54,815 bases of DNA from Candidatus Heimdallarchaeota archaeon (GCA_018238155.1 JABCTZ010000031.1:1-54815), one strand, 5' to 3'; positions 34,050-41,332 are shown, numbered from the stretch's first letter. Notes: generated from the letters alone by a model not told the origin. Made by a program: numbers and translations.

Positions 34050-35123
34050 GTGATAAAATTGGAAGTACAAGCAATTACCTCAGATGAAATATTTCAAGAA
34101 TGGCTGAAAAAAGCAGATGGTAAAACATTGAAAAAATTCTTTGAAAAAAAGAAAGTTGATTTTAGAAGAGAACATGTGTCCGCAGTAGAAACGGTATACA
34201 GTGTATCAAAGTTTATCGTGGTATATTTTCAGAAAAAAATACCAGAAGCATTTGTTGCAGGGGCAGACGGAAAAGTAGAAACTGTCACAGCTGACAAATT
34301 ACACAAGTACAAATTCTATGATTTCAAAGGAAAAAAAGTAGATTTTGATCAATGGAAAGGAGATACAAGTGTACCATTTCTAGCAAGTATTAGAAGAGTA
34401 GATTGTCAAAAATGCCATGGATCTGGGACACACAATTGTGATAAATGTAGTGGCTCTGGACGAGTAAAATGTGATAAATGCGATGGATCTGGAAAACGAT
34501 CATGCTCCTCATGTAGAGGAAAAGGAGTAGTAATCATTGATTTAGACGTTTATGATGTTAATAACAAGAAAACAAAAGTAGAAAAGAACATTCCTTGTGA
34601 GAAATGCGGTCATACCGGAGAAGCTGTTTGTTCAAAATGTGGTGGAGGGAAATCAGTTTTATGCCGAAATTGCGAGGGAGGAAAAAATACTTGTAAAGAC
34701 TGTAAAGGATTTGGTGTATATTATCAATTCAAATATGAAGCAGTGCCTTTCTTGTCACAAAGAAAAAGTGCAATGGTATTCTACAAAAGAGATGTAGAGA
34801 AATTTATTGATAAAAAAGATGTAGAACAACTATTGAACTCGAGAGAGACATCAGGATTATCACTATACAACATTGATGACCTAAATCAAGCAAGACTAGT
34901 ACCACAATTGAACTACTGGACACCAGAAGCAGATAAAATCTGTAATGAAGCCAAAAAAGAATTCAAGAAACTAATGAAAAATAGAGAAGTGGAAGAAAAA
35001 CAGAAGATAATGGTCTTTCCAGCATTACAATTAAGATGTAGAAGCGTAAAAGGAAAGAGCTTTGAAATTTTCGGTATTGGAAATACAAACAATTTTGCAA
35101 TTCTAACTGATGGATTCAAATAA
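34050..35123 (+). CDS. Protein with an array of DnaJ-type CxxCxGxG zinc-finger repeats (SSUH2-like), no J domain
   Basis: Eight CxxC motifs, mostly CxxCxGxG. Confidence 0.75.
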   Translation: MIKLEVQAITSDEIFQEWLKKADGKTLKKFFEKKKVDFRREHVSAVETVYSVSKFIVVYFQKKIPEAFVAGADGKVETVTADKLHKYKFYDFKGKKVDFDQWKGDTSVPFLASIRRVDCQKCHGSGTHNCDKCSGSGRVKCDKCDGSGKRSCSSCRGKGVVIIDLDVYDVNNKKTKVEKNIPCEKCGHTGEAVCSKCGGGKSVLCRNCEGGKNTCKDCKGFGVYYQFKYEAVPFLSQRKSAMVFYKRDVEKFIDKKDVEQLLNSRETSGLSLYNIDDLNQARLVPQLNYWTPEADKICNEAKKEFKKLMKNREVEEKQKIMVFPALQLRCRSVKGKSFEIFGIGNTNNFAILTDGFK

Positions 35124-35249
35124 AACAATCCATCAAAATATTTTCTTTTTCACAGAAAAAAAGCTAGTTTCTTTTTGTAATTAAGTTATTTCACAGTAAA
35201 CTCAATTTAAATTGCTTTGAAAACCTAGTTTCCACCATAGAGAATTAAA

Positions 35250-35450
35250 CTGGACGGGGAAAAAGTTTCCGCACGTCCAGGAAAAGGAAATAGGGATTTA
35301 TTTAAACACTTCTCGAAAGAAAAGTGTTTATTGTGGGGAGAGAGGGATCCGTCAAAAAACAAGTTTTTGTCGGATTTCAAGTTAATATTGACTTGCTTGA
35401 ATAAAAATATATCTACTTCGAACATTAATCACCGAAAATCCTCTCTCTGT
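35250..35450 (+). ncRNA. Hairpin-rich intergenic element (candidate structured RNA or leader)
   Basis: CTGGACG/CGTCCAG; TAAACACTT/AAGTGTTTA with inner GAAA loop; ATCCG.CAAAAA/TTTTTG.CGGAT; near-palindrome CAAGTTAATATTGACTTG. Confidence 0.4.
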
Positions 35451-35606
35451 AAACGCTTTTTAGCTTGCTCTTTTATGTTGCTTTCTTTGTTTTTCGCTTT
35501 CAATCAGTCAAAAAACAGTGAAATTCCGTTTATTTGCTATTTCTGCAACTGAATTCTGTATTTAAAAGCAATATTTTAAATGGTAAAACTCCTACATTTA
35601 GTTACT

Positions 35607-37346
35607 ATGAAATTATCTTTCCCTATTTCTCCAGAACAAATAAGAGAGGGAATGAAGGAAGTAATTGAAAAGATACAAAAAGAGACCAAGTGGGATTTGG
35701 TTAGAAATCTATCAGACGTTGCCATTACTTTGGGTTATGCTCCTGAATTTGGCGATGATTTTGGAGTAATTAGAAAACCAGATTCGATTATTTTTAGCGA
35801 TTGGATTGAAAAGTTAATTCCAGATACTTTTAGATCTAACATTATGGAGTTTCTAGTTGTCAGAGAAGCTTTCTCATTTTTCATTGAAGATAAAGTTATT
35901 TTTGGAAAGCTAGCTGTTATTACTGAGTACCTACAAAATATACTCTCTTTTGCTTATCTTAGAAAAGCATACAATAAAAAATCGCTAGAGATAAAGTTCT
36001 CACATTTAAGGTCAAGATTTTTATTTATACCGAAAAATCTTGGTAGCGATGAAACAAGATTATACAATAAAAAATACGAGATACATTCAATTGTACTAAC
36101 ACAATCTATCTCCTATAATCTCTTATTGAAATCGTATTTAGATTTCGTTGAAGAATTACTTGATGAAGAAATTGATTTTGAAGAGATATTAGATTACCTG
36201 ATTCGATATTTATCAAATTCTCCTCTCGAGATAGCCGCCCCGATTCGATTAAAAAGAAAAACTCTAAGAGTTCTAGAAAAACTAGTAAACATTGGCTTTG
36301 AATCATCCACAAAGGACATAGCAAAATATCTGAATATAAATCATACAACAGTGTTTAGAGAGTTGAACAAAATTGTATCAAGATACAATGCAACTTTTCG
36401 TGTAGAAAAAAACTTCTATTTATTAGGTCTAAATCATTATCTAATAATTGTCAAGTACAAGAAAGAGGATTCTTCATCAACTGAAAAGATTGTTGATTTG
36501 CTAAAATCAATGAGGTATATTTTTGAGATTTTTATTGGAGAAGGCTCAAATTTCAGTTATGTATACAGCCTAACATTGTGCCCAGATCTTGTAGCAGAAT
36601 ATCTAACTAAGAAATTGCTTAAACTTGAAAAAGAAAAAATTATTGAAGAATTTGATGTAATTCCTCTTAAAAATAGAACCTTTAGATCAGCATACATTGA
36701 GGATAGCTTTAATCCAAGTATAAAAAATTTCAAGAAATTGATAGATAACGAAATAGAATGTACGAAATTAACCAATTGGGAAAATAATAATTTCGAAGAA
36801 GATGGTGTATACAGGTTTACATCCAATGAAAAAAGATTGTTGCGGTTCTTGTCGATTTATATTTCAAATGGTATTGTTAATTATAATTATTATCGCGTTT
36901 TTCTACCAGAATGGAGAGATTTTCTTGTCGATCATGGTATTGATCCGAATGATATGAAACAATGTACAGACTTTGCTAATAAAATTAGAAACACTCTTTT
37001 AGAAAAAAAGCTCATTGATTTTCGATTAATTCTGTCTCTCTCAAATCTGATTGTAAATGATATGCTGGTTGTAAAAATTCCTTGTGATCCTGAAGATGAG
37101 AAAATTAAAACCCTTTTAAAGAAACTTAACGTTTTTGGTGGAAGTGTTGTTCTAGCAGCTTCTGATTATATCTTCTTTTTAGTTTACGGTTTGAATTTTC
37201 AACACCCGCTAGTTGAACTTATTATTGAAGAATTTAATAAAAGCGGATACAATGGTAAAATCTTTTCAGTTAAAAATGAAATATTCAGATACGTTCCATT
37301 AGAACTTTTGTACAGTTTTCCAGATCAAAAATGGTTGCTACGATAA
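35607..37346 (+). CDS. Large transcriptional regulator, paralog 1 (degenerate zincin-like N-domain, wHTH, Lrp/AsnC-like domains)
   Basis: HTH STKDIAKYLNINHTTVFRELNKI followed by NFYLLGLNHYLIIV; the ATG at 35607 gives 579 aa, matching paralog 2. Confidence 0.75.
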   Translation: MKLSFPISPEQIREGMKEVIEKIQKETKWDLVRNLSDVAITLGYAPEFGDDFGVIRKPDSIIFSDWIEKLIPDTFRSNIMEFLVVREAFSFFIEDKVIFGKLAVITEYLQNILSFAYLRKAYNKKSLEIKFSHLRSRFLFIPKNLGSDETRLYNKKYEIHSIVLTQSISYNLLLKSYLDFVEELLDEEIDFEEILDYLIRYLSNSPLEIAAPIRLKRKTLRVLEKLVNIGFESSTKDIAKYLNINHTTVFRELNKIVSRYNATFRVEKNFYLLGLNHYLIIVKYKKEDSSSTEKIVDLLKSMRYIFEIFIGEGSNFSYVYSLTLCPDLVAEYLTKKLLKLEKEKIIEEFDVIPLKNRTFRSAYIEDSFNPSIKNFKKLIDNEIECTKLTNWENNNFEEDGVYRFTSNEKRLLRFLSIYISNGIVNYNYYRVFLPEWRDFLVDHGIDPNDMKQCTDFANKIRNTLLEKKLIDFRLILSLSNLIVNDMLVVKIPCDPEDEKIKTLLKKLNVFGGSVVLAASDYIFFLVYGLNFQHPLVELIIEEFNKSGYNGKIFSVKNEIFRYVPLELLYSFPDQKWLLR

Positions 37347-37386
37347 AATGAAAAAATAAGATGAAAAGATTGATAAAATCTTATCA

Positions 37387-37539
37387 TCATCCGCCAGAAG
37401 GGTTTGGATCTTCGTCGAATCCACCTGTGCTACCTCCACCAGAAGGTGCGATAACGCCTTTAGCGAGGAAACCTCCTGATAAGAGGAGTGTCAATACGAT
37501 CATTGCAATAGAAATTAATTTTGGATTCAGTTTCTTCAT
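37387..37539 (-). CDS. 50-aa secreted pre-peptide 1 (not in ORF track): MKKLNPKLISIAMIVLTLLLSGGFLAKGVIAPSGGGSTGGFDEDPNPSGG
   Basis: GGAG SD-like motif, signal-peptide-like N-terminus, triple stop TGA TGA TAA, near-identical paralog at 39811-39963. Confidence 0.85.
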   Translation of the reverse strand: MKKLNPKLISIAMIVLTLLLSGGFLAKGVIAPSGGGSTGGFDEDPNPSGG

Positions 37540-37564
37540 TTTATTTTTTGTCTCCATTATTTAT

Positions 37565-37601
37565 TATCAATAGTCTATTCCGGAAAATAGTTTAAATAAA
37601 G
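37565..37601 (-). promoter_or_regulatory. Promoter/operator block of peptide gene 1
   Basis: 37 nt identical to 39988-40024; TTTATTTAAA TATA-like box on the minus strand; imperfect palindrome CTATTCCGGAAAATAG. Confidence 0.6.
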
Positions 37602-38049
37602 GACTTCCACGAAAAAATGGCACACAAACTTCTGTTTTAGGAAGATTTTTTGTCAAAATAACCTTTCGACAATAAAAGCATCCAAAGAATATCCTTGTCT
37701 TTTGAGATGCATTTCTGGAAGAAAATTTGTCTTTAATTAAGTAAATTCTAATTATATCTTAGAAGAAGAAGTTTCAGGGTTTGAACGTCGTCTCCTAAAT
37801 CCGTTTCCCTCGTTCTTCTTCTCCAGGATCCTCCAGTTCTAAAAAAGAGCTCATCTCTCTGAATCTGGGGGTTTGATCTATTGCCTTTGGAAAATTCTCG
37901 GTGGATTTTCTTCTTTTCTCTCATTCTAGCTGTGTCTTTCAAAGTTTTATTAATCTGAAGTCATTATCTTTCTTTTCAAATATTGGTGCTCTGGATTCTA
38001 TGTTTTACAGCAAGATTTTATAGGTTATAAACGCCTTATTGTTGTTATC

Positions 38050-39789
38050 ATGAATCAGACTTTTCCAATGTCTCTTAAGCAAATTAGAGAGGAAATGAAG
38101 AAAGTTTTAGAAAAGATACACGAAGAGACCAAGTGTGATTTGGTACGAAATCTTTCTGATGTTTCCATAACTATTGGTAAAGCACCTGAAGACGACCAGG
38201 ATTTTGGCACAGTACGAGAGCCCAATTCAATTGTTTTTGGTGATTGGATAGAAAAGCTAACTCCAAGTACTATACAAGTCAATATTCTAGAGTTTCTAAT
38301 TATCAGAGCAGCTTTTACATTCTTCATCGAAGAAAAAACTATCTTTGGTAGGCTTTCAGTTATCACACAGTACATTCTAAATGTACTTTCTTTTGCTTAT
38401 CTTAGAAAAGCATACGATAAGAAATCTGTTGAATTAAAATTTGTACACATACGATCAAGGTTCTTATTTATACCAGAGAATCTTAGCCGTGATGAGAGAA
38501 GGCTTTATAATAAAAAATATGAGCTAAATACGATAGTGCTTAAGCAATCAATTACCTTTAAGCTTTTATTGAACACTTTTTTGCAATTCACTGAAGACAT
38601 TCTCGATGAAGAAATTGATTTCGAAGAGATACTTGATTACTTGATTAGATACCTTTCAAATTCTCCTCTTGAGATAGCCGCACCTATTCGATTAAAAAGA
38701 ACTTCTCTGCAAGTTTTAGAAAAACTAGTAGATATTGGTTTTCAAGCTTCCACAAATGATATAGCAAACTCTCTAAATTTAAACCAAAAAACTGTTTTTC
38801 GGGAATTAATCAGAATTTCATCTCTGTACATTGCTTCTTTTCGTGTTGAAAAAAATTTCTACAAATTGGGTCTTAAGCATCATCTGATTATAATCAAGTA
38901 TAGTAATCAAGATTCCTCAACCACAGAAAAGATATTAGATTCACTTAAATCAAATCGATATGTTTTTGAGATTTATTCGGGAGGAAACTCGGATTTCAGC
39001 TATGTTTATTGTTTAACTCTTTGTCCTTACATTGTAGCTGAAAATTTGATTTATAGACTGCAAAGATTTGTAAAAGAAGAAATTATTGTCGAATTTGATG
39101 TCATTCCTCTTAAAAATAGAATTTTTAGATCTGCCTTTGTTAAGGATAGTTTTCAACCGAGTGTTGCAAATTTCTCGAAGTTGATAAATGGCGAATTGAA
39201 ATGCACAAAGCTAATCACTTGGGGAAACAATAATTTCGAAGAAGAAAATGCTTCTCGTTTTACATCAAATGACAAAAGATTGCTTTGGTTTATGTCATTA
39301 TATCAATCAAATGGGATCGTCAATTACAACCACTATCGTGGCTTTACTGTTGAATTAAAAGAATTTCTAGCCGCCAATGGTTTTAATTGGGATGATATGC
39401 AAAGCGGTTTAGATTTTTTGAATAAAACTCGAAAGACTCTTTTGGAAAGAAAATTAATTGACTTTCGATTAAGACTCTCTCTCTCTCACGTCGCAGCAAA
39501 TGAATCTCTTATTGTAAAAATACTTTGTGATCCTGAAGATGAGAAAATTAAAATGGTATTGGATAAGTTAAATATTTTTGGTAGTAGCATTGTTCATCAA
39601 GGGTATGAAAATCTTATCCTCTCAGTTTTTGGTTTGAATTACGAACACCCTTTAGCTACGCTTATTATTGCTGAATTAAATAAAAGTGGTTTCGATTGTG
39701 AAGTTTTTTCAGTTAAAAATATCGTTTGGCGGTTTGTTCCTTTGCACAAATTATATAGTTTTCCAGACCACAAGTGGCTTCTAAAATAA
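38050..39789 (+). CDS. Large transcriptional regulator, paralog 2
   Basis: Colinear with paralog 1 (shared LDEEIDFEEILDYLIRYLSNSPLEIAAPIRLKR); HTH STNDIANSLNLNQKTVFRELIRI. Confidence 0.75.
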   Translation: MNQTFPMSLKQIREEMKKVLEKIHEETKCDLVRNLSDVSITIGKAPEDDQDFGTVREPNSIVFGDWIEKLTPSTIQVNILEFLIIRAAFTFFIEEKTIFGRLSVITQYILNVLSFAYLRKAYDKKSVELKFVHIRSRFLFIPENLSRDERRLYNKKYELNTIVLKQSITFKLLLNTFLQFTEDILDEEIDFEEILDYLIRYLSNSPLEIAAPIRLKRTSLQVLEKLVDIGFQASTNDIANSLNLNQKTVFRELIRISSLYIASFRVEKNFYKLGLKHHLIIIKYSNQDSSTTEKILDSLKSNRYVFEIYSGGNSDFSYVYCLTLCPYIVAENLIYRLQRFVKEEIIVEFDVIPLKNRIFRSAFVKDSFQPSVANFSKLINGELKCTKLITWGNNNFEEENASRFTSNDKRLLWFMSLYQSNGIVNYNHYRGFTVELKEFLAANGFNWDDMQSGLDFLNKTRKTLLERKLIDFRLRLSLSHVAANESLIVKILCDPEDEKIKMVLDKLNIFGSSIVHQGYENLILSVFGLNYEHPLATLIIAELNKSGFDCEVFSVKNIVWRFVPLHKLYSFPDHKWLLK

Positions 39790-39810
39790 AGAAGAAAAGA
39801 TTGGTGAATA

Positions 39811-39963
39811 TTATCCACCATTGGGGTCGATTTCGTCTTCAAAACCACCTGTGCTACCTCCTCCGGAGGGAGCGATAACACCTTTAGCGAGGAAGCCTCC
39901 TGATAAGAGGAGTGTCAATACGATCATTGCAATTGAAATAATTTTGGGGTTTATTTTCTTCAT
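39811..39963 (-). CDS. 50-aa secreted pre-peptide 2: MKKINPKIISIAMIVLTLLLSGGFLAKGVIAPSGGGSTGGFEDEIDPNGG
   Basis: ATG at 39963 with GGAG SD-like motif (the track uses an upstream TTG); paralog of 37387-37539. Confidence 0.85.
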   Translation of the reverse strand: MKKINPKIISIAMIVLTLLLSGGFLAKGVIAPSGGGSTGGFEDEIDPNGG

Positions 39964-39987
39964 TGTTTTTTGTCTCCATTGTGAAAC

Positions 39988-40024
39988 TATCAATAGTCTA
40001 TTCCGGAAAATAGTTTAAATAAAG
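39988..40024 (-). promoter_or_regulatory. Promoter/operator block of peptide gene 2
   Basis: Identical to 37565-37601. Confidence 0.6.
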
Positions 40025-40488
40025 AACTTCAGCGAAAAAAAGACACACTTTATTCTATTATTAGGAACAAATTTCTCAAAATAGTCTTTCGTTACTAGAC
40101 GTTTCACAAAATTATCCTTGTCTTGGTAAATGCTTTTTTTGACAGAAAATGTGCCTTTAAACATACAAGTTCTAGTTATATCTTAGAAGAAGTATCTGGG
40201 ATTTTGAACGTGGTCTCCATCTCTTTTCTCCCCCTTTCTTCTTCTCTTTTATCCTCTATTTCCAAAAAAGCTCGTCCACTTGAACTTGGATTTAGAATCA
40301 TTTGCTTTTGGAAAATCTCCCGGCGATTTTCTTCTTTTTTTCTCTCACATCAACTATTTCTTTTTGAGAGTATTTAAAATAAAAACTCACTACATTTCTT
40401 TTCAAATTTGTTCTTTTCTAGCAAGAATTGTTTTTTCTTTTTTGAACGATTTTTTTACTACATTTTGATTTGTTCAATTATTAATTAA

Positions 40489-40782
40489 CTATGAGATTAG
40501 CTCTCTCTCGAGATCGACCAATTTTTCCACCACTCTCTTCCCTTTTGGAGTTAGCTCGTAGTACAAACGTCGTGACCCTTCGAGTGTTGTTAATTTTATC
40601 AATTCGAATCCGTGTAGTATTTCTCGAACTTTAATTAATGTTCGATCATTCATTCCTAGTTTTCTTATTTTGCTTCCAAATATCTTTCCACGATTCCACA
40701 AGATAATCAGGAGTTTGAAAGTGTTTTTTTGGTTATTTAATTTGAAAATTAATAATTCTTCTTCTTTGTCGAGTTCGGGCAT
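40489..40782 (-). CDS. Small winged-helix DNA-binding protein
   Basis: RRLYYELTPKGKRV wing motif. Confidence 0.75.
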   Translation of the reverse strand: MPELDKEEELLIFKLNNQKNTFKLLIILWNRGKIFGSKIRKLGMNDRTLIKVREILHGFELIKLTTLEGSRRLYYELTPKGKRVVEKLVDLERELIS

Positions 40783-40834
40783 GGTTGTCTCAATCTCTCC
40801 CGATACTTATTTTCTTTTTCAGTTATTAAATCTT

Positions 40835-41332
40835 CTAATCATAAATATTGAAGCTATTTATTGTTCCGAATGATTTCCAGAAGAGATATTCATGGAGCCC
40901 TTCGTCCACAAAATTTTCTACCGTACCTATTTTCTTATAACCATTCTTTTCATAAAATTTTATTGCTTTTTCATTTGTCGTGGAGCATAAGAGGAAGACG
41001 TTTGGCAATTTTTCTGCAATTGTTTTTTCTTCTACATACTTCAATAGCTTTGACCCTATTCCTTTGCTTCTCCTCTCTTCTTGTAAGACGATTCTTCTGA
41101 TGTAATTTGCAAACATGATATTTCGTTTGATTGCTATGAATCCCACTACTTTCTTTTCCTGCTCTGCGACAAATACCAGGTTTTTTCCTAGTCGATCGTT
41201 TAGAAATTTTTTTGCTCCCTCTTTTGTTAATTTAAATACTGTCCATGGAAATGTTGTGATATTTATTTCTGCACAAGTATCTATATCGTTTTCTTTCAAT
41301 GGTCTTATTTTTATTTCATTCATTTCGATCAC
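40835..41332 (-). CDS. GNAT-family N-acetyltransferase
   Basis: RSKGIGSKLL and NEKAIKFYEKNGY motifs. Confidence 0.92.
   Translation of the reverse strand: MIEMNEIKIRPLKENDIDTCAEINITTFPWTVFKLTKEGAKKFLNDRLGKNLVFVAEQEKKVVGFIAIKRNIMFANYIRRIVLQEERRSKGIGSKLLKYVEEKTIAEKLPNVFLLCSTTNEKAIKFYEKNGYKKIGTVENFVDEGLHEYLFWKSFGTINSFNIYD

Follow-up and report, generated by a model that had tools for sequence, protein, structure and literature searches.

A duplicated regulator and mini-protein gene pair in a Heimdallarchaeota genome: a candidate archaeal peptide-signalling module

The locus and its conserved two-gene module

The DNA considered here, called the window, is a 54,815-nt stretch from a Candidatus Heimdallarchaeota archaeon (GCA_018238155.1, JABCTZ010000031.1:1-54815), contig C45 of a genome of 4.08 Mb in 46 contigs. 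Within it lie two copies of a two-gene unit, each consisting of a gene for a large helix-turn-helix (HTH) protein, REG, and a small gene on the opposite strand, PEP. An earlier note, made from the sequence alone, had proposed that this unit is an archaeal peptide-signalling cassette similar in logic to bacterial quorum sensing. The features of the locus are as follows.

35607-37346, + strand: regA, 579 aa; predicted zinc-less zincin-like domain, then two Lrp/AsnC-like HTH+RAM units (open reading frame (ORF) map; member of the REG alignment)
37387-37539, - strand: pepA, 50 codons; MKKLNPK head, 19-residue hydrophobic run, acidic Gly/Pro tail, tip DEDPNPSGG
37540-37601, - strand: pepA 5' region, with ribosome-binding site (RBS), 37-nt identical block and TATA-like box
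37552-37555 (+ strand coordinates): pepA RBS, GGAG
37565-37601 (pepA side) and 39988-40024 (pepB side): 37-nt block identical in both copies
About 37590-37600: TATA-like box, pepA side
37602-37940, no strand: non-coding continuation, repeat copy 1, 75-80% identical to 40025-40363; repeat families D3, D6, D9, D14 and D20
38050-39789, + strand: regB, 579-aa paralog; AlphaFold2 (AF2) model with N-domain 1-212, winged HTH (wHTH) 1 at 217-259 plus RAM-like domain, wHTH2 at 406-466 plus RAM-like domain
38050-38685, + strand: predicted zincin-like pseudo-peptidase domain at the N terminus of regB, residues 1-212; RAAFT in the place of HEXXH
38698-39729, + strand: predicted tandem Lrp/AsnC-like body of regB, two HTH+RAM units in one chain
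39811-39963, - strand: pepB, 50 codons; MKKINPK head, tip EDEIDPNGG
39964-40024, - strand: pepB 5' region, with RBS, 37-nt identical block and TATA-like box
40025-40363, no strand: non-coding continuation, repeat copy 2

Two paralogous 579-residue HTH proteins, each convergent with a 50-codon gene, are present as the earlier note had described them (ORF map and BLASTP), with stop-to-stop distances of 40 nt in the regA/pepA pair and 21 nt in the regB/pepB pair. The two REG proteins align over 579/579 residues with zero gaps, at 65% identity and 81% positives (BLASTP), close to the roughly 60% that had been estimated by eye, and both of the recognition-helix strings given for them, NHTTVFRE and NQKTVFRE, occur in the REG sequences. 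The peptides are alike over residues 1-41 save for the two L/I swaps already remarked on, which are L4I and L8I, and their tips differ exactly as had been read, DEDPNPSGG versus EDEIDPNGG. The cassette itself is real, but the extent given for it, 35607-40024, was too short: repeat analysis placed the unit, repeated at a spacing of 2424-2443 nt, at 35586 to about 37940 and at 38029 to about 40363, past both ends. The repeat reaches about 340 nt of non-coding DNA beyond each PEP promoter; this continuation has no reading frame common to both copies, its identity matches that of the coding parts, and an Rfam scan of 35000-40900, continuation included, returned nothing meaningful. Since its second copy has no REG gene after it, the continuation is not simply a REG promoter. 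The window holds a recent tandem duplication in which both the tips and the regulators have diverged.

The small ORFs likewise have the marks of real genes. The pepA and pepB DNA can be aligned including about 220 nt upstream of the ORFs; an upstream ATG of pepA (METKNK) is in frame there and is put out of frame in pepB by a 2-nt indel, and this makes the ATG of MKK the true shared start. In Nei-Gojobori comparisons of the two copies, PEP codons 1-41 gave nonsynonymous (dN) and synonymous (dS) rates of 0.033 and 0.54 (dN/dS about 0.06), the nine tip codons dN 0.53 and dS 0.87, and REG dN 0.22 and dS 1.19. The 12 synonymous versus 3 replacement changes within codons 1-41 are the mark of strong purifying selection on the PEP reading frame and not of recent gene conversion. 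Most of 32 PEP genes from this and related genomes, some with GTG or TTG starts among them, have an RBS of the GGAG/GAGG/AGGTG type about 6-14 nt ahead of the start codon, and a TATA-like box stands about 50-65 nt upstream of the window-type and twin-PEP genes. A hidden Markov model (HMM) of the peptide, which matched pepA at 3.5e-17, gave exactly four significant matches among the six-frame ORFs of this genome, one beside each REG, and the peptide profile reached 93 clusters in a collection of 5.8 billion proteins. When cut back to the MKK start, nearly all of the public peptides are 43-52 residues long; those with a named source are mostly from Heimdall-type or unclassified Asgard metagenome-assembled genomes and are annotated as 'hypothetical', the label under which many PEP and REG proteins already stand in public records. 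No family for PEP was found in Pfam, NCBIfam or PDB sequence searches. A query of 35500-40500 against sequencing runs listed neither RNA nor DNA data, which speaks neither for nor against expression. That the small ORFs are chance frames whose likeness is left over from the duplication is favoured by their small size only, whereas the low dN/dS, the conserved RBS and TATA signals, the confinement of the four copies in 4.08 Mb to the sides of REG genes and the 93 public clusters all oppose it; the reading may be taken as refuted for practical purposes.

REG and PEP together form a conserved, duplicated two-gene module. Two more REG paralogs, at 21-24% identity, are encoded on contigs C19 and C21. 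A general lack of peptide genes beside REG homologs, which the earlier note had named as a refutation, is not what is found: all four REG genes of this genome have one, as does every related REG whose flanks are uncut by a contig end (31 loci plus 20 longer regions). PEP placement is fixed within each REG subfamily, being convergent downstream, upstream on the same strand, or upstream and divergent. Full-length REG was found in 13 of 400 genomes of the phylum, namely this genome, 11/11 others of family f1, and one outside that family, and each REG-bearing genome has about three or more REG paralogs. Beyond these, the REG profile gave partial HTH-RAM matches in other Asgard families, notably f12, some of them in ORFs of about 580-700 aa; no PEP-like ORF was seen near these distant matches in a crude screen of flanks of only about 650-1000 nt, which is not evidence of absence.

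Two observations concern the genome outside f1 (G019). Its REG and PEP genes stand on short contigs, C58 (5.4 kb) and C25 (7.3 kb), and could reflect a binning error or transfer. An intact PEP on C58 has, about 530 nt away, a PEP-like frame (L010:3156-3275) that opens on ATA in place of a start codon, has a broken head motif, lacks the acidic tail and looks like a decayed PEP duplicate.

Predicted features of REG, PEP and the PEP promoter

An exhaustive HMMER scan of 1.84 billion representative sequences found 78 relatives, and the full-length ones have about 560-620 residues. An AF2 model computed with regB as the first sequence of a 36-sequence alignment reached a predicted local distance difference test (pLDDT) score of 88 and a predicted template modelling score (pTM) of 0.76, and shows the N-domain followed by two winged helix plus alpha/beta units. 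In Foldseek searches with the body of the protein, the top match was NirDL (4ch7; E 4.5e-7, sequence identity about 10%), and PH0061, PH0140, PH1519 and NMB0573 were matched at probability 1.0. The REG family profile run against PDB sequences reached PH0061 (8.1e-4) and Pyrococcus LrpA (1.2e-3) over residues 222-346, the helix of HTH1 has the usual recognition-helix pattern, and the weak family matches of REG are all to DNA-binding HTH families (Lrs14, Sta1, MarR and HTH_11). No REG family beyond such weak winged-helix/HTH matches is present in Pfam or NCBIfam. On these models the REG body has an Lrp/AsnC fold, with two HTH+RAM units in one chain.

The N-domain folded alone gave an AF2 pLDDT of 87. 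In a structural search, most of the 50 matches listed were zincin peptidases (DPP III, M1 aminopeptidases, thermolysin/LasB, archaeal minigluzincins and SprT-like proteins), at Z scores of 5-7.5 that lie below the level clear of background. A shape search of the ESM Atlas returned M1, M48 and BSP families; scores in a language-model atlas search were 0.81 or lower, an uninformative level, and family searches found no sequence-level link to zincin families. The HEXXH motif was not found in the 41-sequence REG alignment (21 rows displayed), where the consensus at its place is R/K-E-x-x-x, with RAAFT in regB. The N-domain is thereby modelled as a zincin-like domain without the zinc motif, its catalytic motif having been lost. 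G53, W66, E87 and N111 are near-invariant across the REG subfamilies; judged from order and spacing and not from a residue-level superposition, R86-E87 may correspond to the place of HEXXH and N111 to the third zinc ligand of gluzincins. The architecture that the earlier note had assigned to the receptor, zincin-like, wHTH and Lrp/AsnC-like, agrees with the AF2 and Foldseek results, with the Lrp unit doubled and the zincin-like part a prediction from the structural search.

PEP features were drawn from 33 genome-derived peptides and 91 from public collections. The head reads M, K (98%), K (93%), I/V/L, N (80%) or S, P (86%) and K/R, with a charge of +3. It is followed by an uncharged hydrophobic run of 19 residues in 70/91 peptides and 18 in 16/91, which is transmembrane length, and a GG usually lies 4-5 residues ahead of the end of this run. 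The tail has 16-24 residues (26% Gly, 10% Asp, 10% Pro) and a mean charge of -2.2. The positive-inside rule predicts that the basic side of a membrane segment faces the cytoplasm, and PEP is therefore predicted to have its head inside and its tail outside. In this genome, the head motif with a hydrophobic run was found in the four PEPs and one unrelated frame only, which argues that it is not a general signal-peptide habit of the organism. Tails fall into classes, PSGGGSTGG plus F/W plus an acidic stretch (the window type), PSGFGQGD, GDPTLTPNPP, GEATLG...EDTGI and DDTGLW, each with conserved motifs, and their ends vary. The pattern of a conserved leader and a variable tip, already pointed out from the two window copies, is upheld by dN/dS, segment identities and tail classes.

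Two descriptions of PEP were rejected. A terminal GG cannot serve as its defining handle, as only 35/91 peptides end in GG, other classes ending for instance in D-T-G plus an aromatic residue or in GTD. Archaeal class III (type IV pilin-like) signals have a short basic leader with K/R then G/A/S, cut before the hydrophobic stretch; the PEP head ends in N-P-K with the run following directly, and none of 91 sequences has G/A/S at -1.

The 37-nt identical block, TATA box included, may be the core promoter of the PEP genes. Its 17-nt core TTCCGGAATAGACTATT is confined to the promoters of pepA and pepB and is absent before the REG genes. A further copy of the TATA-like string of the PEP promoters (TTTATTTAAAC) stands at 35297-35314, + strand, about 300 nt ahead of regA; it may act as the regA promoter or mark where an unannotated transcript begins.

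A tentative receptor-ligand reading and its rivals

When module pairs were binned by REG identity, the segments of PEP behaved differently. Between pairs with REG identity <25% and those with >60%, the identity of the head went from 0.82 to 0.93, that of the helix from 0.36 to 0.78, that of the juxtamembrane part from 0.15 to 0.64 and that of the tail from 0.12 to 0.59. Tail identity thus tracks REG identity (Spearman 0.6 overall, 0.4 within clade), as a check suggested in the earlier note had anticipated, but shared descent alone would give such a correlation, which is for that reason descriptive and not a test of co-adaptation. Described in this way, the tail changes along with REG, as would be expected of a specificity element, and the head is constant as if it were read by shared machinery or a conserved pocket. 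The 'two specificity types' proposed earlier are putative, the typing having been drawn from two tips only. Direct binding of REG and PEP is slightly favoured by a co-fold in which both partners were given as alignments and three controls were run: the score was 0.53, the best control reached 0.01, the runs shared at least 31% of contacts, and the partner pLDDT was at least 35. This weak support is to be read against a mark that was reached by 58/80 solved complexes and 2/110 mismatched pairs, with passing scores of 0.60 or lower coming from only 7/80 solved complexes plus both passing mismatches.

The reading that we put forward, tentatively and as clearly short of an even chance, is that each unit is a receptor-ligand pair, in which PEP releases its tail and REG, a cytoplasmic protein, senses it through its peptidase-like domain. 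The REG/PEP pairing, the status of PEP as a coding gene, the modelled folds of REG and its missing catalytic motif are results; we infer the topology of PEP, its cleavage, its export and import, DNA binding by REG and the part of PEP that contacts REG, and the steps may be imagined as follows. PEP would be made as a mini-protein of 43-50 residues and put in the membrane so that its basic MKK(I/V/L)NPK head faces the cytoplasm and its acidic tail, rich in Gly and Pro, faces outward. The tail would then be freed, most plausibly by juxtamembrane or intramembrane cleavage near the conserved GG, in the manner of streptococcal SHP pro-peptides cut by Eep, would build up outside, and would come back via one of many Opp-type importers. 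In the cytoplasm, the zinc-less peptidase-like domain of REG, a fold made for extended peptides, could act as the sensor, and the double Lrp/AsnC body would bind DNA and alter transcription, probably including that of the adjoining PEP gene. Class-specific tail motifs and fast tips that diverge with REG might in this way give parallel channels per cell, four of them in this genome. The genome holds at least 12 SBP_bac_5 (OppA/DppA-type) peptide-binding proteins, several of them in tandem on contigs C13 and C8, an unusually large peptide-uptake repertoire. The released-tail reading has in its favour the logic of the cassette, tails of distinct classes with fast tips and the Rgg/SHP precedent; these importers and 3 M50 site-2 proteases would permit it.

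Several results weigh against the released-tail reading. Conservation in PEP is highest in the head, 7 residues predicted to be cytoplasmic, which stay 80-93% identical even at REG identity <25%; a diffusible tail does not explain this and an RRNPP-like model does not predict it. No conserved -3/-1 signal-peptidase site was seen in the PEPs, the sites being judged by eye: the candidates differ among members, or have a charged -3 residue, or Pro at +1. The run of 18-19 residues is longer than the usual core of a signal peptide. No exporter, processing protease or importer gene is conserved beside the cassette, and one REG subfamily has a PEP on each side (loci L013 and L017). DNA binding by REG is a prediction, and the top match of its body, NirDL, is an enzyme; the Pfam Lrp/AsnC models gave no match at E<=0.1 with the two window REGs and none at E<=0.01 with 36 members. 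The co-fold output came without a contact list and hence without a binding epitope. The idea of an operator in the PEP promoter found no statistical support: in the 98 nt before 28 PEP genes, inverted repeats were no longer than in dinucleotide shuffles (2/28 with p<=0.05, median p 0.67), so that such an operator is not demonstrated.

The head, on which the released-tail reading is silent, is central to an alternative that we hold to be only slightly less probable, in which PEP stays in the membrane as an anchored single-pass micro-protein with its head in, and REG holds the invariant MKK(I/V/L)NPK sequence in its peptidase-like domain. REG would then be kept away from DNA at the membrane, or a head fragment would be freed by regulated intramembrane cleavage, and the variable outside tail would be the input side that could be clipped or bound extracellularly. 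The constancy of the hydrophobic run, the want of a conserved signal-peptidase site and a head that is nearly the same at any REG divergence and within the genome limited to the four PEPs all suit such an anchor; G53, W66, E87 and N111, kept in all REG subfamilies, would fit an invariant ligand moiety, the genome holds 3 M50 site-2 proteases, and the weak co-fold support fits equally well. Against this, an invariant head cannot insulate from one another four paralogous pairs in one cell, which are nevertheless kept in a strict one-to-one match. Seven residues make a small handle, in which the lysines may do no more than set topology and Asn-Pro no more than cap the helix; the residues conserved in the N-domain may have a structural role; and there is no evident way for a disordered 20-residue tail to signal through one helix.

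The remaining alternatives dispense with signalling from PEP to a regulator. It is improbable, in our view, that REG is a dedicated transcription factor for the PEP gene with no feedback binding, and PEP the output, perhaps as a peptide of the surface or membrane, as one with bacteriocin-like or membrane-active properties, or as a structural subunit of small size. A regulator and its target would be expected to lie side by side and to be inherited together, PEP has strong promoter signals of its own, and small single-helix peptides are often effectors; on the other side, such an account leaves the peptide-binding-type fold of REG unexplained, and the modules stand in conserved syntenic contexts by housekeeping genes, not in variable islands. 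We consider it very unlikely that REG is no regulator at all but works on or with PEP in the style of leader-binding maturation proteins, as an enzyme, a chaperone or a maturation factor of the double-Lrp kind. The match to the siroheme decarboxylase NirDL is the best one for the body, and no Pfam regulator model was reached, which speak for this; the high rank of NirDL comes largely from its having two units in one chain, the sequence-level profile matches are true Lrp regulators (PH0061 and LrpA), the weak matches and the normal recognition-helix pattern of HTH1 point to DNA binding, and none of the 41 aligned sequences keeps the peptidase motif.

Relation to known systems, neighbouring genes and significance

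Bacillota and their phages are known to use peptide signals that a cytoplasmic receptor reads. The closest likeness to the module is in the streptococcal Rgg/SHP systems, in which a cytoplasmic HTH regulator also stands beside a tiny MKK-hydrophobic-GG gene and several paralogous pairs occur per genome. Pro-SHP, in which a classical signal-peptidase site is missing, is cleaved by the membrane metalloprotease Eep; its C-terminal 8 residues are the signal and are imported by Opp (PMC3735184). The Rgg receptor is of the tetratricopeptide repeat (TPR) type, whereas REG is modelled as a zinc-less zincin-like domain with a double Lrp/AsnC body; SHPs stop at the GG, whereas PEP adds an acidic Gly/Pro tail of 16-24 residues, in an archaeal host; and the steps described for Rgg/SHP would be putative in REG/PEP.

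Rap-Phr, PlcR-PapR, NprR-NprX and AimR-AimP have the same logic of a receptor-regulator with an adjoining exported pro-peptide gene, and likewise a conserved leader, a variable C-terminal specificity part and duplicated cassettes with diverged tips. They differ in an unrelated receptor fold and in cleavable Sec signal peptides, compared with the fixed run and invariant head of PEP; the orientation of PEP to REG, moreover, varies by subfamily, unlike in the other RRNPP cassettes. A small export-tagged pro-peptide gene by the receptor gene, a feature of RRNPP systems, is present at 4/4 loci of this genome and at all untruncated relatives. No TPR repeats were found in REG in the AF2 model, Pfam or fold searches; without a TPR receptor, REG/PEP is not a member of RRNPP and would be an analogue at most. 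The proposal of an analogous pheromone/receptor module on a non-TPR receptor is in keeping with the conserved module and the non-TPR architecture, but the invariant head is not RRNPP-like.

Other parallels concern parts of REG. Archaeal Lrp/AsnC regulators (PH0061, LrpA and FL11/PH1519) also combine a wHTH with a RAM-type domain and are DNA binders controlled by small ligands; REG differs in fusing two units behind an extra domain of 210 residues and in missing the Pfam models, and the ligand of Lrp/AsnC regulators is an amino acid, not a peptide. NirDL and AhbA-AhbB resemble REG in having two Lrp/AsnC-like units that act as one body, but they are enzymes of haem d1/haem synthesis with neither an N-terminal zincin-like domain nor a peptide partner, and no haem-pathway genes were found among the conserved neighbours of REG/PEP. 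In ImmA/IrrE with ImmR/DdrO and in BlaR1/MecR1 with BlaI, signal-response circuits that couple a winged-helix repressor to a domain of zincin fold, an active peptidase cuts the repressor, unlike in REG, whose motif is lost and whose domain is fused to the DNA-binding part. For the anchored micro-protein, Mlc-PtsG and the anti-sigma factors freed by site-2 proteases offer a precedent, a membrane protein holding and releasing a regulator, but those anchors have sizeable cytoplasmic domains and PEP offers 7 residues. No description of such a REG/PEP pair was found in the literature searched, in agreement with the earlier statement that no equivalent is described in Asgard archaea. REG/PEP may be regarded as a credible but unproven candidate for archaeal peptide signalling, built of unrelated parts.

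The recurrent neighbours of the modules are a PlsY-like protein, GNAT, NUDIX, a small wHTH protein and a Mre11/Rad50 block, a synteny within the genus. At 40489-41332 of the window, a 97-aa winged-helix protein and a GNAT acetyltransferase adjoin the module; winged-helix, GNAT, NUDIX and PlsY-like membrane protein genes recur beside window-type modules in 5-9 related genomes, and the recurrence of the 40489-41332 neighbours is probably this same synteny. The genes just upstream of regA encode a secreted peptidase of the clostripain family (C11; 31999-33939), which bears a signal peptide and, at its C terminus, a hydrophobic anchor, and a protein of 357 aa whose CXXCXGXG repeats are zinc fingers of the DnaJ type (34050-35123); related fragments of these genes recur near some window-type modules (cluster c9). 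At some loci of the distant subfamilies, a gene for a single-domain CheY-like receiver stands by PEP/REG, often just downstream of PEP on the same strand (L044:7052-7546, L045:10741-11121, L046:6520-6969, L048:10405-10764, L049:6803-7372 and L050:1469-1933), which hints at a link to two-component signalling; the two loci of this genome on C19 and C21 lack such a receiver. A signal-peptidase-I-like gene with the motif SESMEPT (C21:106498-107382) lies about 2 kb away from the C21 PEP and is not conserved next to the modules in relatives.

Nothing equivalent to bacillary peptide signalling through a cytoplasmic receptor was found for archaea in the literature searched. It is possible, though doubtful, that the module is the first case of archaeal peptide cell-cell communication, with a dead zincin sensor on a double-Lrp body and insulated channels, several to a cell, the birth of which through duplication and diverging tips would be visible in the window, or a Notch-like or anti-sigma-like relay variant of it, in which the tail would be trimmed outside, an intramembrane cut would follow at the conserved GG, and REG would read the freed head. 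Asgard archaea are the closest known relatives of eukaryotes, and how they sense each other and their surroundings therefore bears on early cell-cell interaction. The module is a small, testable two-gene system, with short peptides, a foldable receptor and natural paralogs for tests of specificity. REG may exemplify the recruitment of a peptidase fold for sensing. If PEP is instead an anchored micro-protein, the pair would represent a new way to control an Lrp-type regulator.

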